From an uncultured Candidatus Saccharibacteria bacterium (GTDB lineage: Bacteria > Patescibacteriota > Minisyncoccia > 2-02-FULL-40-12 > GWA2-44-9), in NCBI GenBank assembly GCA_964513645.1, contig CAZENF010000004.1, positions 1 to 58,406 of the forward strand: 58,406 nucleotides of DNA. The letters are read 5' to 3'. The number at the start of each line of letters is the position of its first letter. Within the stretch, counting starts at the first letter, position 1. Shown piece after piece: positions 10,596 to 58,406 of this stretch. Below the pieces are notes generated by a model. That model was not told the origin of the DNA, ran no database searches, and worked only from the letters and a program-made list of their open reading frames with translations. Made by a program: the position numbers and the translations under genes.

Positions 10596-10744
10596 CGAGG
10601 GACCCATTAGGTCGCCCGCGAGGGGCCCCATTGTCTAACTCCCTATCTTACTGGCTCCCTCCAGACCGAGCCCTAAGTCTTTATGGGCTCAGGTCTCGAG
10701 AGAGGGACAATGGGGACACGCGTAGGCGACCAAGAGGATCGATG
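10596..10744 (-). other. ~149-nt GC-rich nested-palindrome insert between rplP and rpmC
   Basis: Outer arms are CATCGAGGGACCCATTAGGTCGCCCGCGAGGGGCCCCATTGTC and GACAATGGGGACACGCGTAGGCGACCAAGAGGATCGATG. The inner hairpin is TCCCTCCAGACCGAGCCC-TAAGTCTTTAT-GGGCTCAGGTCTCGAGAGAGGGA. Confidence 0.7.
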
Positions 10745-20537: not shown

Positions 20538-20580
20538 GTGAAATTTGTCTATGAGCGTAGCGAGTAGCTACAAATGAGCT

Positions 20581-20656
20581 ATCCCGTACGAAGTAGCCTC
20601 GCCGAGGTCCCCTTAAGGACTCGTGCCAAAGGCACGAGCGAGACTTCGTACGGGAT
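20581..20656. repeat. TIR hairpin element, copy 1 (76 nt)
   Basis: ATCCCGTACGAAGT (20581-20594) and ACTTCGTACGGGAT (20643-20656) form a perfect 14-bp inverted repeat. The interior folds as a CTCGC/GCGAG stem plus two hairpins. Confidence 0.85.
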
Positions 20657-20695
20657 TACTTTTTTATAATCAATTACTTCGTTCTTGAATAAAAA

Positions 20696-21649: not shown

Positions 21650-22270
21650 TTAACCGGTGAGGCCAGTAACGAGGTGGAATATCCAAAATATAAGCGGGGA
21701 AGCGAAGAACATAAAGACTATCAAAAACACCGGAAATATGAATAAGGTATTTTTATATAAAAAAGTTTTGAAGGAGTCGAACTTGGGAGGCAAAAGAGTC
21801 ATCAACAGCCAGTGCCCATCAAGCGGCGGAACTGGAAACATATTAAATACCGCCAAGGAAAGATTTAAAAGAACTATCCTTGAAAAAAGGTCAACAACAG
21901 AAGCGGAGCCGATAAAGCCTTCGGCAAAACGCAAGGTAAACCCGAAAAGAAGCGCTAAAACGAGATTTGAAGCAGGGCCGGCAAGGGCAACCTTAACAGG
22001 ACCATACTTTCTGTCATCGAGATTGTTAGGATTATAAGGAACCGGTTTGGCATAACCAAAAGCAAAACCTGTGGCCATATAAAGAATGAACGGCAAAATT
22101 ATCGAACCAAAAAGATCCAGGTGTTTTAAGGGATTCAAGCTCAAACGGCCAAGGTCTTTGGCCGTTGTATCACCTAAAGAATTTGCCATTAGGCCGTGAG
22201 AAACCTCGTGTATTGTAACAGAATATAGAATGACTATTATGTAGAAAATAGGTAGTATTAAAGTCTCCAT
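21650..22270 (-). CDS. Site-2 protease family (M50) membrane metalloprotease
   Basis: HEVSHG plus NMFPVPPLDG in a polytopic protein. I place the start at METLIL (ATG 22270). The ORF-track extension to 22423 reads through repeat copy 2. Confidence 0.8.
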   Translation of the reverse strand: METLILPIFYIIVILYSVTIHEVSHGLMANSLGDTTAKDLGRLSLNPLKHLDLFGSIILPFILYMATGFAFGYAKPVPYNPNNLDDRKYGPVKVALAGPASNLVLALLFGFTLRFAEGFIGSASVVDLFSRIVLLNLSLAVFNMFPVPPLDGHWLLMTLLPPKFDSFKTFLYKNTLFIFPVFLIVFMFFASPLIFWIFHLVTGLTG

Positions 22271-22344
22271 CCTGTACGAAGTAGCCTCCGCCGAGGTCTC
22301 TAAAGAGACTCGCGACTTCGTCGCGAGCGAGACTTCGTACGGGA
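22269..22344. repeat. TIR hairpin element, copy 2 (76 nt)
   Basis: Arms are ATCCTGTACGAAGT and ACTTCGTACGGGA. It has the same architecture as copy 1, with compensatory changes in both internal hairpins. Confidence 0.85.
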
Positions 22345-22351
22345 CCAGTAC

Positions 22352-22380
22352 TTGAAATGTTAGCAAGTTTGATGTAGAAT
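22352..22380 (+). promoter_or_regulatory. Promoter candidate TTGAAA-17-TAGAAT toward rpmB
   Basis: 22352-22357 is TTGAAA and 22375-22380 is TAGAAT. A mirror-image candidate, TTTACA-17-TAACAT, sits on the minus strand at 22357-22385. Confidence 0.4.
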
Positions 22381-22432
22381 GTAAAACACAAATTAAATAC
22401 GTATTGACTAACATCGACCCCAAATATTTCTA

Positions 22433-35339: not shown

Positions 35340-35353
35340 AAATAACCTCCTTT

Positions 35354-35557
35354 CAAATTTGTCCGCGAGGATTTGCAATCCTTGCAGACGAGCGGGTACA
35401 AATTTGAGGACCCCGCACCATCTGGGCTCAAAGTATGTGCTATCACATTACTTTAGCCGTAAGGCGGCTATCGCCTTTTTACCTTCTGAAATATATAACC
35501 TTGATTCCAGATGGTGCGGGGTAAGGTGCCGTAGCGAATCGCTACGCTCTTCGACGG
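35354..35557 (-). promoter_or_regulatory. ~200-nt multi-hairpin rpsU leader
   Basis: Three units. The first is 35354-35406 (CAAATTTGTCCGC.../...GCGGGTACAAATTTG). The second is 35411-35521, bounded by a perfect 15-bp inverted repeat (CCCCGCACCATCTGG/CCAGATGGTGCGGGG). The third is 35527-35558 (GGTGCCGTAGCGAATCGCTACG...GACGGCTACC). Confidence 0.6.
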
Positions 35558-39871: not shown

Positions 39872-41893
39872 TTACTTGACCAGAAATTTTGCGATAAGGA
39901 GAGCGACAATGTTAGCTACCTTGATCATGGGATTGATAGCAGGTCCGGCGGTGTCCTTGTAAGGATCCCCTACCGTGTCTCCTGTCACTGCTGCTTTATG
40001 GGCGTCGGAACCTTTGCCGCCATAATTACCCTCTTCGATATATTTCTTGGCATTGTCCCAAGCCGCACCACCAGAAGTCATCGAAATAGCTACGAATAAT
40101 CCGGTAATTATCACTCCCACCAAAAGTCCGCCCAACGCCTGTGGTCCGAGCAGAAATCCGATAGCTATCGGGAATACGATCGGAATAAGCGCCGGCAGTA
40201 TCATTTCTTTTATCGCAGCCCGGGTAACAATATCAACCGCGTTGCCGTAATCCGGCTTTTCCATGCCCTGCATAATGCCAGGCATTTCTTTGAACTGTCT
40301 CCTGACCTCATCCACAACCGCCGCACCGGTCCGGGCAACCGCTTCCATCGCCATTGAACCGAAAAGATACGGCATCATTCCGCCCACAAACAATCCTATC
40401 AAAACTCGAGGATCCTGAAGTTCAAAAAATAACTGACTACCCAAGCTTGAAAGTTCTTGAATATAAGCGCTAAACAAAACCATCGCCGCAAGTCCGGCTG
40501 AAGCGATAGCGTAACCTTTGGTCACCGCTTTGGTCGTATTACCAACCGCATCCAAAGCATCGGTCACCTCTCTGACAGAGTCAGGCAAGTGTGACATTTC
40601 AGCGATCCCGCCCGCGTTATCAGTTATCGGACCGAAGGCATCGATGGCAACAACAATTCCGGCCAGTGAAAGCATGCTCATCGTCGCTAAAGCAATTCCA
40701 TAAAGACCGATGACATAAAAAGCAAGATAAATACCCAGACAAATGACAACAATCGGCAAAGCAGTGGCCTGCATCGAGACGGCCAAACCGGCAATAATAT
40801 TTGTGCCATGGCCGGTGGTAGAAGCTTTGGCGATAGTCTGGACCGGACGGAATTTTTTAGAAGTATAAAAATCAGTTATCAGAACCATTAGCGCGGTTAC
40901 ACCGATACCGATCATCATCGCCCAGAAAACATCCATCCGGTTAACTAAGCCGTTAGATAATTTATCGAGGTCACGGATATAGGTGAGCTTGTTTACCATG
41001 TAATAGAAAATGCCGGCCAGAACAACGGCTGTCACGGCCAGACCTTTATAAAGAGCGTTCATTATTCCGCCCATAATACCCTCGCCCAGACGAACAAACA
41101 AAGAACCGATTATCGAAGCGACCACGGCCGAAGCGCCGATTATCAAAGGCAAAATGGTATAGCCCGGTTCGGAAGGAATAAGTAAACTGCCGAGCAGCAT
41201 AACAGAAACAGCAGAAACAACATAAGTTTCAAAAAGATCGGCCGCCATACCCGCATCATCACCAACTTCATCCCCAACCAAATCAGCAATGACTGCGGGA
41301 TTTCTCGGATCATCTTCAGGAATTCCGGCTTCAATCTTACCAACAAGATCCGCTCCGACATCGGCACCCTTGGTGAAAATTCCACCGCCCAAACGGGCAA
41401 AAACAGAAATAAGAGAAGAACCAAAACCCAAACCAATGAGGGCTTTGACATCTTTGGTTACCCAGTAGAAGAATGTGACCGAGATGAGGGCGAGACCGAC
41501 GACGAAGAAACCTGTCACCGCGCCGCCTTTATAAGCCAGGCCAAAAGCTTCAGCGAGACCTTTTTTAGCTTCCTCGGCAACTCGGACGTTCGCCCGAACC
41601 GCAACCATCATTCCGACATAACCGGCTGCAGCTGAAGCGATCGCACCCAATAAAAATCCAATGGCAATGGTTTTGCCAAGCCCGACAAACAATATTGCCG
41701 CAACCACAATACCAACGGCAAAAACGGTCGTGTTCTGACGTTTAAGATATGCTTCGGCGCCTTCCTGTATCGCCTTCTGTATCGACTGCATTTTTTCATC
41801 GCCGGTCGATTTATTTAATATCTGCCAGATCAGGAAAGCTCCGTAGGCAAGTGATGCCACGCCCGCTCCGATCGGCAACCAGAGAATATTCAT
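39872..41893 (-). CDS. hppA: Membrane-bound proton/sodium-translocating pyrophosphatase
   Basis: [20 protein letters not shown] and [19 protein letters not shown] motifs. Start placed at MNILW (ATG 41893). The ORF-track start at 41908 lies inside repeat copy 3. Confidence 0.93.
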
Positions 41894-42010
41894 CCCGTAC
41901 GAACTCATATGCTACGCATATTATGGTCAAACGTTTGACAATAATATAACCAGCGATGAGCTAAATTAATATTATTTTTGCAAACCCGTCAGGGTGAGTT
42001 CGTACGGGAT
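41892..42010. repeat. TIR hairpin element, copy 3 (119 nt)
   Basis: Arms are ATCCCGTACGAACT and AGTTCGTACGGGAT. The interior contains GGTCAAACGTTTGACA. Confidence 0.8.
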
Positions 42011-42151
42011 TCACCCCATTCGAACCACATCAGCTCACAGGCAGCTTCCTTTCATCAGATCTGCTAATTAGATTGGTAACTTAAAAACAACAAAATAAAG
42101 GATACTATAATTATCCCGGGGATTCAACTGTTAAGCCCTGTGGGGTCTTTG

Positions 42152-43227: not shown

Positions 43228-43467
43228 CTATTTTTTATTATTTTCGGAGTTTAAATATTCCGAAACAAGCTGAGATAGTTTTTCGTGATGTTCCTTCTGG
43301 CTTTTAATTGTTGTAGCCATTTCATCTAAACGCTTATGTAGTGCCAAGTAATCATTGTTACCATTCTGCATATGCCGGCGGGATTTAAGCATCAGATAAA
43401 TATTGATGCCGAGCATGCTCAAAACCGCCAAACTAACCAATGATATTAGAACATAAAAAGGATTCAT
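43228..43467 (-). CDS. Small membrane protein (79 aa)
   Basis: One N-terminal TM helix. It lies 2 nt upstream of rmuC. Confidence 0.6.
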   Translation of the reverse strand: MNPFYVLISLVSLAVLSMLGINIYLMLKSRRHMQNGNNDYLALHKRLDEMATTIKSQKEHHEKLSQLVSEYLNSENNKK

Positions 43468-43577
43468 CCCGTACGAAGTAGCCCTTGCAGGGTCCGAAGG
43501 TCAAATGATTGACATTCATATCCGGGCAAGAACCCCATTATTATCCCGACTGAAGTTTTTACTACTTCGTACGGGAT
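43466..43577. repeat. TIR hairpin element, copy 4 (112 nt)
   Basis: Arms are ATCCCGTACGAAGT and ACTTCGTACGGGAT. There is an extra internal TIR-like ATCCCGACTGAAGT at 43543-43556, and the interior contains GGTCAAATGATTGACA. Confidence 0.85.
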
Positions 43578-43654: not shown

Positions 43655-43924
43655 TGGACCCTACTGAGCTCGAACCGGTTACCTCCACATTGTCCCGATA
43701 AATCATGATGGGCCGCAAGTGGACCGTAGGAGACTCGAACTCCTGACCTCCTCATTGCAAATGAGGCGCTCTACCAACTGAGCTAACGGCCCATCATGAT
43801 TTATCAAGGATCCTCGACTTCATTACCCTAATTTTAAATTGTAAGTCGGGACAAATGTGGCGCTCCTCGCCCGACTGAACAATGTCAGTCGTTCGGGCGG
43901 GTACCAACTAAGCTAAGAGCCACC
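43655..43924 (-). other. Outer tRNA-Ala-like shell, disrupted or intron-like, enclosing tRNA-Ala
   Basis: rc 43902-43924 corresponds to tRNA positions 1-21. Next is a 36-nt hairpin (43866-43901). Then GAGC-G-CCACA-TTTG (43852-43865) corresponds to positions 22-35. A 159-nt insert follows (43693-43851). Finally CAATGTGGAGGTAACCGGTTCGAGCTCAGTAGGGTCCA (43655-43692) corresponds to positions 36-73. Confidence 0.55.
43720..43792 (-). tRNA. tRNA-Ala (UGC)
   Basis: The rc reads GGGCCGT-TA-GCTC-AGTTGGTA-GAGC-G-CCTCA-TTTGCAA-TGAGG-AGGTC-AGGAG-TTCGAGT-CTCCT-ACGGTCC-A. The G3:U70 pair is present. Confidence 0.9.
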
Positions 43925-50795: not shown

Positions 50796-50854
50796 CCCCG
50801 TACCAAGCCCGCCCCTTTTCTTAATGGCGGCCAGCGGAAAAGCTTGGTGTGGGG
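50796..50854. repeat. Diverged TIR-family-like hairpin (59 nt)
   Basis: Arms CCCCGTACCAAGC and GCTTGGTGTGGGG form 13 bp, including two G.T pairs. The interior contains CCGCC..GGCGG. Confidence 0.5.
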
Positions 50855-57738: not shown

Positions 57739-57974
57739 AAGTTTCTCAACTTTATATAGCTTCCCAGTATTGCCTTTTGACAGAAATTTTTATTCGAGCT
57801 GTCATAGAATTCCGATTTAGCCTTCGGATCAGGCATCAGAATTAATTCCGATATCGACTTCATTTTTTTGAAAGTGTTTAGAGTATAGACGTGAAAAAGT
57901 AGAAAATACTTCTTCCCGTTTTTCGCCTCCACACTTTAAATCCTTTCGTGCATCCAAGAAAAATCTTGAATAGA

Positions 57975-58406
57975 AAGGAGGTGATCCAAGAGCAGCTTCC
58001 GCTACCCTTGCCTTGTTACGACTTAGTTCCTGTCATCGAGCTTACCGTGTCCCTACATATAAAATAGGTCTTCAGGTATTCCCGACTCCCTTAACTTGAC
58101 GGGCAGTGAGTCCAAAATTCGAGAACGTATTCACCGCTGCGTTCTGATCAGCGATTACTAGCAATTCCGGCTTCAAGAAGGCAAGTTGCAGCCTTCTATC
58201 CGAACTGAGGGTGCTTTTGATGGGATTAGCTCCACCTCGCGGTTTGGCAACCCATTGTGACACCCATTGTATCATGTGTGTAGCCCAGGACATCAAAGGG
58301 CCACGCTGACTTGACGTCATCCCCACCTTCCTCCTTCTTACGAAGGCAGTCTCGTCTGACACGTATAACAGACGATAGGGGTTGCGCTCGTTAATCCACT
58401 TAAGGA
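57975..58406 (-). rRNA. rrs: 16S rRNA, 3' ~430 nt; the 5' part runs off the window end
   Basis: The rc ends ...AAGTCGTAACAAGGCAAGGGTAGCGGAAGCTGCTCTTGGATCACCTCCTTT. Also present are CGGTGAATACGTTC and the GGGGATGACGTCAAGTCAGC block. Confidence 0.95.

Follow-up and report, generated by a model that had tools for sequence, protein, structure and literature searches.

Four short inverted-repeat elements lie in a 58,406-nt contig of an uncultured Candidatus Saccharibacteria bacterium (CAZENF010000004.1; the window, meaning this whole stretch of DNA), and they are probably non-autonomous DNA transposons, similar to transposable elements of the miniature inverted-repeat kind (MITEs), of a large undescribed superfamily that is apparently confined to Patescibacteria (also called the Candidate Phyla Radiation, or CPR) and regenerates start codons. 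The elements insert with a 4-bp duplication of a T..A-type target, their terminal A regenerates the ATG of the downstream gene, and one structured class, termed type A, persists in frame within genes. Small size, conserved terminal inverted repeats (TIRs), target site duplications (TSDs) that vary between loci, and presence or absence at orthologous sites are all found, as in MITEs.

The four elements

A first-pass annotation had reported four elements bounded by the same 14-nt inverted-repeat pair. With up to two mismatches allowed, the 14-mer ATCCCGTACGAAGT has eight matches in the window, which form four inverted pairs at the reported places (20581-20656, 22269-22345, 41892-42010, and 43466-43577); a shuffled window is expected to give 0.3 matches, and none of 100 shuffles reached eight. 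The arms themselves are 13 nt long. The element proper reads TCCCGTACGAAGT–interior–ACTTCGTACGGGA, with 13+13 nt arms and T…A ends, and the outer A/T of the 14-mer belongs to the flank. The four pairs also differ from each other: copies 1 and 4 are perfect, copy 2 has one mismatch per arm, and in copy 3 the two arms have changed together. The copies, with the target sequences that flank copy 3, are as follows.

20582..20655, minus strand: copy 1, type A, 74 nt; perfect 13-nt TIRs and a GC-rich three-hairpin interior
22270..22344, minus strand: copy 2, type A, 75 nt; one mismatch per arm; 73 bits with covariance model R1
41893..42009, minus strand: copy 3, 117 nt, AT-rich interior; TIR variant GAACT/AGTTC
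42010..42014, minus strand: upstream target copy of copy 3, GTGAA, consisting of the old GTG start and the TSD TGAA
41889-41892, minus strand: downstream TSD copy of copy 3, TGAA, completing the direct repeat GTGAA–element–TGAA
43467..43576, minus strand: copy 4, 110 nt; perfect TIRs; same family as the copies at loci L144 and L154

All of the neighboring host genes, namely tuf, fusA, rpsG, rpsL, the M50 peptidase gene, the H+-pyrophosphatase (PPase) gene, and rmuC (from the listing of open reading frames, ORFs, and Pfam), lie on the minus strand. On this strand, copies 2, 3, and 4 end in …ACTTCGTAC(G/A)GGA-TG, and the terminal A of the element is the A of the downstream ATG in three of the four copies: position 22270 for the M50 peptidase gene (21650-22270), 41893 for the PPase gene (39872-41893; identified by Pfam scan), and 43467 for a 79-aa membrane-like ORF (43228-43467) that precedes rmuC. 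Copy 4 has the TSD TAAA/TGAA with one mismatch, and a promoter-like TTGAAA-17-TAGATT lies directly upstream of it (43623-43595, minus strand). An exact sequence look-up of the RmuC protein of the window gave no record. Copy 1 is placed differently; it occupies the rpsG-fusA spacer, whose reported length of 158 nt was reproduced, in sense orientation to fusA and 44 nt 5′ of the fusA ATG, with no recognizable TSD. It scores 89 bits with R1 on the minus strand versus 39.5 on the plus strand. The first reading used the plus strand, whereas the host genes are on the minus strand, and it thereby missed the TSDs, the ATG formed by the terminal A, the fixed orientation, and the in-frame coding copies.

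The interiors of copies 1-4 measure 48, 49, 91, and 84 nt, in keeping with the reported range of 48-91 nt. They had been described as GC-rich multi-hairpin junctions. That they are structured was borne out, since seven of eight folds over both strands are more stable than those of shuffled sequences (z −4.2 to −7.0), the weaker one being the minus-strand fold of copy 2 (z −2.6); the proposed P1, P2, hairpin A, and hairpin B of copy 1 were all recovered by folding. A GC-rich, multi-hairpin interior, however, applies to copies 1 and 2 only, and the relatives of copies 3 and 4 have about 35-43% GC.

Target duplication and start-codon docking

A search of related CPR genomes for the arm pair, the check suggested by the first-pass annotation, was productive: exact-arm scans of reference genomes gave 28 and 40 loci, and a metagenome scan gave at least 120. 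The loci are nearly all from Patescibacteria (Yanofsky-, Nomura-, and Zambryski-bacteria, Paceibacterota, and metagenome-assembled genomes labeled ‘Saccharibacteria’). These scans demanded perfect TIRs. The fetched loci that hold elements, relatives, or empty sites are labeled L001-L395. The census drawn from the matches listed comprises 226 non-redundant relatives, of which 158 have the exact arm and 68 have an arm variant, TCCCGTTAGAAGT, which was first seen at the PPase start of two relatives and then collected through a relaxed scan, and which behaves identically. Element lengths range from 67 to 128 nt (74-117 nt for the window copies), which is too short to encode a transposase. Most copies have a perfect 13-nt TIR, and in the variants GAACT, GTTAG, and GAAAT a change in one arm is matched in the other. 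Larger members of the superfamily were also found at L119 (3660-3937 and 7620-7897; 278 nt) and L174 (5972-6161; 190 nt), with the arm variants GAAAT and GTTAG and with TGAA/TTCA duplications, and these are likewise too small to encode a transposase.

An ATG stands at the 3′ junction in 130 of the 158 exact-arm copies and 55 of the 68 variant copies (82% of 226), for which the chance expectation is about 1/16, and it is followed by an ORF of at least 60 aa in 113 and 45 copies, respectively. A perfect 4-bp direct repeat flanks 113/158 and 45/68 copies (about 70% of 226; chance about 1/256 per copy). The duplicated tetranucleotides of the exact-arm set are TGAA (69), TGGA (28), and then TGAG, TAAA, TCAA, TTTA, TTGA, and TTAA; ten distinct ones occur in this set and at least eight in the variant set. 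The target is a loose TNNA of which 4 bp are duplicated. Since the element ends in A and the target consists of TG plus two bases (A-TGAA or A-TGGA), an ATG is rebuilt at the right end irrespective of the former start codon (ATG, GTG, or TTG). A former GTG or TTG is retained in the upstream repeat (GTGAG, TTGAG, or GTGAA), and the downstream junction reads ATG, as at L001, at L002, and in window copy 3. Judged by eye from their first residues, the host genes presumably include dnaA, rplC, rplI, rpsR, pgk, a GTPase, FtsX, and glycosyltransferases, and they form no regulon. The ends have an asymmetry that is conserved across unrelated interiors: the left reads …GAAGT-C and the right CT-ACTTC….

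Occupied and empty sites in relatives

PPase relatives in reference genomes have 69% identity or less, too distant for an empty-site comparison; closer ones were taken from a protein collection, in which the nearest are Yanofskybacteria-like with 83% identity; the organism of the window is itself taken to be Yanofskybacteria-like. Across these relatives and the window, the PPase start codon occurs in three states: empty, occupied by a type A element, or, in the window, occupied by the 117-nt element. The empty site reads …aac GTGAATATTCTTTGG in L150 and L151 and …gta ATGAATATTTTATGG in L152. Removal of the element and one TGAA from window copy 3 leaves GTGAATATTCTCTGG, which matches the start of the L150 orthologue. 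In L149 and L153, the same start carries a type A element with the GTTAG arm variant, and the presence of a different family member indicates that this site has been hit repeatedly. As a side observation, the long 5′ untranslated region (UTR) of the empty-site PPase leaders varies between relatives, and L150 and L152 have tandem AT-rich repeats (ttgaaaattgtaaatt…) about 130 nt upstream of the PPase start, 3′ of a conserved promoter-like TTGAAA-17-TATCCT.

Orthologues of the M50 peptidase gene in L279 and L280 have homologous upstream DNA without the element, ...TTTACA-17-TAACAT-ttcaagc-ATGGAT. The rpsG-fusA spacer is identical in the same-species contigs L274 and L275, and the element is absent from L279-L282; relatives have a 113-nt spacer without an element, a different-armed element, or an extra ORF. 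Copy 1 had been highlighted as sitting inside the str operon, and its position there is correct, but this variation among relatives implies that it is not a conserved feature of the operon. The extra ORF, at copy 1's place between rpsG and fusA in L281 (1722-2066) and L282 (793-1137), has a 23S_rRNA_IVP domain (PF05635).

Type A and the AT-rich families

Clustering of the interiors divided the exact-arm set into 36 families. Type A, with 63 copies including window copies 1 and 2, has a GC-rich stem and three helices. A covariance model could be built from the hits for this type, and in helices P2-P4 nine pairs show changes on both sides; 96.6% of the cells in these helices are paired, compared to about 40% when the partners are slid. 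The counts of G·U versus A·C pairs, which bear on the folded strand, are 26 versus 17, too close to decide it. In the window, the model gives clear finds only for copies 1 and 2, on the minus strand.

The modal type A element of 71 nt makes, with its 4-nt TSD, 75 nt or 25 codons, and it is stop-free in both orientations in the start-codon phase; two of 17 copies checked, including window copy 1, are exceptions with a stop in one orientation. Seventeen of the 63 copies lie inside long ORFs with one frame open on both sides, and all such copies within coding sequences (CDS) are 71 or 74 nt, lengths that become divisible by three once the 4-nt TSD is added. Their hosts are RuvB, SecA, UvrC, and others. 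For RuvB, the structure PDB 1in4 aligns to query residues 1-127 and 158-246, and the insert faces 1in4 residues 231-236 (between 230 and 237); the SecA insert lies just before residue 707 of 3iqm; and a 577-aa FAD oxidase ORF runs straight through a type A copy. The AT-rich families, on the other hand, contain stop codons and are nearly confined to gene starts, where the right end always faces the gene, and only 0-3 of 95 copies of non-A families are found in ORFs. That the stop-free, multiple-of-three copies alone occur in CDS suggests that type A elements within coding sequences are retained in the mRNA and translated, and the elements at gene starts would likewise not be removed from it.

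Such a pattern bears directly on the idea of an intron-like or bypassed element, in which the RNA is excised and religated, or the ribosome hops to the downstream AUG, the helix juxtaposing the two tetranucleotide copies. Direct repeats at the base of a perfect helix, insertions tolerated in essential genes, the sense orientation at gene starts, and an AUG that is otherwise predicted to be sequestered would all suit this idea. If excision or hopping occurred, however, stop-bearing families would be harmless within genes, and yet the coding copies are almost wholly of type A; an excised element would have no need of multiple-of-three lengths; both orientations are found among the in-CDS copies; and the interiors share no catalytic core and match no ribozyme or intron family. 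This mechanism appears highly improbable. In T4 gene 60 and the mitochondrial byps, matching take-off and landing sequences stand on either side of a stable hairpin in the reading frame. The present elements resemble them in having a hairpin between matching sequences, and differ in that only a stop-free, multiple-of-three subtype is found in genes, where it would be read rather than skipped.

The same distribution speaks against a cis-regulatory structured RNA (a riboswitch, a protein-binding leader, or a thermosensor) with the 13-bp stem as its core and the repeats as the signal of a regulon, which we consider quite unlikely. The strong folds with z down to −7, the covarying hairpins of type A, the position of copies 5′ of genes in sense orientation, and a stem sequence conserved across distant Patescibacteria are consistent with such an RNA. 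Nevertheless, more than 30 unrelated interior families leave no common pocket for a ligand or protein, the host genes are functionally unrelated, and TSDs with empty sites show insertion. The in-frame copies in RuvB, SecA, and UvrC, the two orientations of in-CDS copies, the absence of the str-operon copy from close relatives, and the lack of any matching Rfam family are also at odds with it.

Orientation at gene starts is absolute. It is 63:0 across eleven multi-member non-A families and about 29:0 for type A, which within CDS is found in about eight sense and five antisense copies (Fisher p = 0.0015). Strictly oriented insertion was considered and is ruled out by copies that are reversed with respect to the target, at L186 (TTCA) and L003, and by the antisense copies in CDS. 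No base-composition skew that could account for the fixed orientation was found, and the predicted accessibility of the start with the actual versus the flipped element showed no difference for the AT-rich families and a small one for type A.

Expression at element-borne starts

The genome of the window has almost no Shine-Dalgarno (SD) sequences before genes and many TATAAT-like boxes 6-9 nt before the ATG, with a normal 16S rRNA 3′ end (…CACCUCCUUUCU, 57974 region), which ends in CCUCC. Translation of genes that start at an element would begin at the regenerated AUG. In copy 2, the old ATG has decayed to ACTGG and the 75+4 nt are not a multiple of three, so the AUG at the base of the helix must be the start. 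Between the predicted native promoter of this gene and the site of the old start codon there are only 7 nt, a leaderless geometry.

22357..22385, minus strand: predicted native M50 promoter, TTTACA, 17 nt, TAACAT; assigned by consensus only and kept in the empty-site relative

In several AT-rich families, −10-like boxes are conserved on the sense strand at distances of 8-70 nt from the ATG. These are TTAATT-17-TGnTATAAT in the 120-nt family, at 70 nt; TATTAT at −32 in the 79-nt family, all 13 of whose copies also have TAACTT at 8 nt; and TAYnYT at −14 (92%) with TATTAT at −43 in the 100-nt family. Type A has no AT-rich promoter-like sequence and no such box. Two routes to initiation could be proposed. 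In the first, the transcript would start inside the element at a sense-strand −10-like box and lack the left arm, in which case the 13-bp helix could not form; in an organism prone to leaderless transcripts, this would explain why the orientation is fixed and why the ATG must abut exactly. In the second, which copy 2 would require, a leaderless-type mRNA of an SD-poor genome would simply tolerate the helix-closed structure at its 5′ end.

Other routes were tried and set aside. Read-through from the old start as a general mechanism fails because only type A is open, whereas non-A families vary in length and have stops, variably placed, in each of the three phases. An upstream ORF whose stop is coupled to the AUG (an ATGA overlap, or a TAA before the right arm) occurs in few copies and is not conserved, nor is an SD sequence within the element. 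A −10 box TACTTC in the right arm with a leaderless ATG lacks the conserved final T and a −35 box, and a proper TAACTT is found only in the 79-nt family. An ECF-like GGAC-N16-CGTA motif was seen in type A but could not be generalized.

The regular features of the gene-start copies could also be those of a domesticated gene-start cassette, once mobile and now kept by the host as a 5′ module that supplies a promoter and/or a short or leaderless 5′ end together with the ATG; type A would then be a 5′ structure that stabilizes the mRNA or tunes initiation, and the fixed orientation and conserved structure of the elements would reflect function. Such domestication is a real possibility, if short of probable. 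It draws on the absolute orientation at gene starts and its mixture in CDS, the end asymmetry, the conserved sense-strand boxes of the 120-, 79-, and 100-nt families, the scarcity of SD sequences and abundance of TATAAT boxes in the window genome, the covariation of type A, and the decay of the upstream start codon in copy 2 and in L149/L153, where the gene depends on the A of the element. The promoter score, on the other hand, does not favor the sense over the antisense strand overall, and in AT-rich sequence such boxes arise by chance on either strand; type A has no promoter-like sequence of this kind; the host genes form no regulon; and relatives express the same genes without the element.

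Several points weigh against the reading as non-autonomous transposons. More than 80% of the copies are on start codons, though TNNA is far commoner in intergenic DNA, and random insertion followed by purifying selection may not be enough to produce this bias. A search for an extended target motif at occupied starts revealed only a modest enrichment of G at −3/−4; compared with free ATG[AG]A starts, occupied ones have G at −3 in 36% versus 17%, again only a modest difference. The requirement for perfect TIRs may itself enrich for copies kept by selection, and the start-codon excess may stem from targeting, positive selection, or perfect-arm ascertainment. Folding predicts that in a full-length transcript some 90-99% of the 3′ arm, with the A of the AUG, is paired (about 91% for type A and about 98% for the AT-rich families), which should hinder initiation, and a crude promoter score gave no overall excess on the sense strand over the antisense strand. 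Neither stop codons nor skew nor predicted accessibility accounts for the fact that type A has a single orientation at gene starts. The hairpins are conserved with compensatory changes, and the orthologous copy in L149 and L153 is, by eye, better conserved than the flanking UTR; these two observations suggest a function at the level of the host, and gene conversion between copies could be another cause of both. Finally, no autonomous element with these TIRs was found in the 1.8 Mb of fetched loci or in the window, a search whose coverage of loci rather than whole genomes leaves absence unproven. No TIR pair encloses an ORF there, the largest elements being the 190-278 nt members, and the related autonomous insertion sequence (IS) with the same TIRs that a MITE should have was not seen in these loci; transposition is inferred from the TSDs and empty sites only.

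A further proposal is that the elements are more than tolerated at start codons: as portable gene-start modules with their own transcription start and/or a helix-capped 5′ end, donating the initiation A, they would be directed to these codons or favored there by positive selection. We regard it as doubtful. Insertion itself is shown by the locus-varying duplications and the empty orthologous sites, and mobilization would presumably occur in trans by a DDE-type transposase, of which none was found in the 1.8 Mb of loci.

Comparison with known systems

No copy matched an Rfam model, whether at the gathering score or at E <= 10; collections of phages, plasmids, and viral contigs likewise gave no match, and a literature search by sequence string and topic returned nothing relevant. 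The first-pass annotation recognized no described repetitive extragenic palindromic (REP), MITE, or riboswitch class, and this held for Rfam and the literature searched; the Rfam match that could have overturned it did not appear. The MITE superfamily is undescribed in the sources searched.

The ends (T/C)CCC…GGG(A/G) and the TNNA/TTAA duplications recall the piggyBac / IS1380 DDE transposons, which we take as no more than a lead. A variant copy at L023 reads TTAA-CCCCGTACG…CGTACGGGG-TTAA. The target here is looser than TTAA, and no transposase of any family was found beside or between the TIRs.

Two reported groups of elements come closest in behavior. Rickettsia palindromic elements (RPEs; Ogata et al. 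2000) are in-frame palindromes in genes of a reduced genome (PMC10969869). Like type A, they are short palindromic mobile repeats of reduced genomes that stand in frame in unrelated, often essential genes as a tolerated peptide. Their sequence and host phylum are unrelated to those described here, the likeness being one of behavior and not of sequence; they are about 100-150 bp long, versus about 71 nt with a sharp 13-nt TIR and a 4-bp TSD for type A. Most copies here, moreover, dock on start codons, and AT-rich non-coding sister families have the same ends. The Correia elements, or nemis, of Neisseria are co-transcribed, hairpin-folding, promoter-creating MITEs that alter the expression of adjacent genes (PMC2649163; PMC10969869). 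They share with the present elements the MITE form with conserved TIRs, the folding into hairpins, and presumably co-transcription with adjacent genes, and promoter creation at their ends is the nearest analogue of the behavior proposed for the AT-rich families. Compared by description, Correia elements have longer TIRs, a TA duplication, an IHF site, and RNase III cleavage, versus a 13-nt TIR and a 4-bp TNNA TSD here, and in-frame genic copies are likewise not reported for them. Docking on start codons, or the gift of a base to the initiation codon, is reported for neither Correia elements nor RPEs, and a 2024 review of prokaryotic MITEs does not list start-codon docking among their effects, the term ‘start codon’ being absent from it. 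On this comparison, type A appears closest in behavior to the RPEs and the AT-rich families to the Correia elements.

The first-pass annotation had seen in each TIR the GTAG tetranucleotide of REP elements. This did not hold: GTAG lies outside the TIR, arising as AAGT-AG across the boundary between arm and interior in copies 1, 2, and 4, and copy 3 lacks it. It had also noted that no RAYT or transposase gene lies nearby, and no such domain was found in the window ORFs scanned. An origin as REP/REPIN palindromes mobilized by a RAYT, an IS200/IS605-like Y1 transposase, has in its favor the many copies of short palindromic repeats, the absence of a classical transposase nearby, and the finding, in a relaxed scan, that other phyla have a family of long hairpins whose core is similar (TCCCGAGCGAAGT…). 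Y1/HUH transposition, as known for IS200/IS605 and REP elements, makes no direct target duplications. The elements here, by contrast, have real 4-bp direct duplications that vary between loci and stand at start codons and inside genes rather than in extragenic DNA; they have no conserved GTAG head and no RAYT, no Y1_Tnp domain occurs in the window, and the hairpins outside the CPR have inverted flanks (GTCA…TGAC), not direct ones. Mobilization by a RAYT thus seems scarcely credible. The hairpins of other phyla are a repeat GTCA-TCCCGAGCGAAGTCGAGGGA…TCCCTCGACTTCGCTCGGGA-TGAC found in Acidobacteriota, Verrucomicrobiota, Gemmatimonadota, Thermomicrobiales, and Novosphingobium (L283-L395, e.g. L283 6457-6531, L295, and L312), with a core that resembles the CPR arm. 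Integron attC core sites R″/R′ have the form RYYYAAC … GTTRRRY at the 3′ ends of cassettes; an attC site was rejected, the present ends reading TCCCGTACG…CGTACGGGA and the elements being 5′ and not 3′ of genes.

Other features of the window

In its 58 kb, the window holds the four clear copies and one possible relative.

50796..50854, minus strand: possible fifth, degenerate relative; arms CCCCACACCAAGC … GCTTGGTACGGGG; R1 20 bits, E ~0.02

This degenerate inverted repeat has another arm type and lies 23 nt upstream of the transketolase start codon; a TIR type that resembles it (ATCCCGTACCAATC…) stands in the rpsG-fusA spacer of the relative L276. Arm-like degenerate sequences also flank copy 1 at 20676-20688 and 20545-20566, ACTTCGTTCTTGA on the plus strand and GCTACTCGCTACGCTCAT on the minus strand, and copy 1 may have been inserted into or beside the remains of an older element.

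The 23S (1-2899) and 16S (57974-58406) rRNA genes, both on the minus strand, are unlinked, about 55 kb apart, with ribosomal-protein, tuf/fusA, ftsA/ftsZ, RNR, and PPase genes between them. The 23S match covers model positions 1-2621 across 2899 nt, so that about 280 nt may be additional, perhaps an insertion. A perfect 19-nt inverted repeat (43697-43715 / 43787-43805) encloses a tRNA-Ala gene (43719-43792, minus strand); it is a repeat whose 5′ arm overlaps the 5′ strand of the acceptor and which could be a processing stem or an alternative pairing. GC-rich imperfect inverted repeats are found at 10601-10740 and 35353-35522, with arms of 35 nt and 25-26 nt, respectively; they have no Rfam match, the ORFs they overlap have no Pfam match, and they may be unannotated structured RNAs or other repeat elements. 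As judged by match positions, several fetched contigs give the impression of beginning or ending at an element.

Significance

Docking at a start codon with the ATG rebuilt by a terminal base appears to be a new strategy for a mobile element. One practical consequence is a systematic annotation artefact in these genomes, in which gene callers start proteins inside or upstream of elements (e.g. ‘MSSYGM…’ and ‘MNPVRS…TSYGM…’). The PPase of the window is recorded as 678 aa (‘MSSYGMN…’) with a start within the element (41893-41908), and the M50 gene was called as 254 aa through copy 2 (L274 1692-2456). An ORF at L206 (1258-1983), which by eye we take to resemble TrmD, begins ‘MNPARSLARAKGASPKDLGGATSYGM…’, and a gene caller would read this as its start.

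The in-frame inserts in RuvB, SecA, and UvrC come from a phylum with reduced genomes, like Rickettsia. If docking reflects targeting or selection, it would be a new survival route in a genome that is about 90% coding. If the elements do act as portable gene-start modules, a mobile element could rewire promoters and convert GTG and TTG to ATG across a streamlined, SD-poor, leaderless-prone genome, and an AUG at the base of a 13-bp helix would be an efficient initiation site in these bacteria. The elements represent a natural experiment on translation initiation in CPR bacteria, which are hard to study directly.

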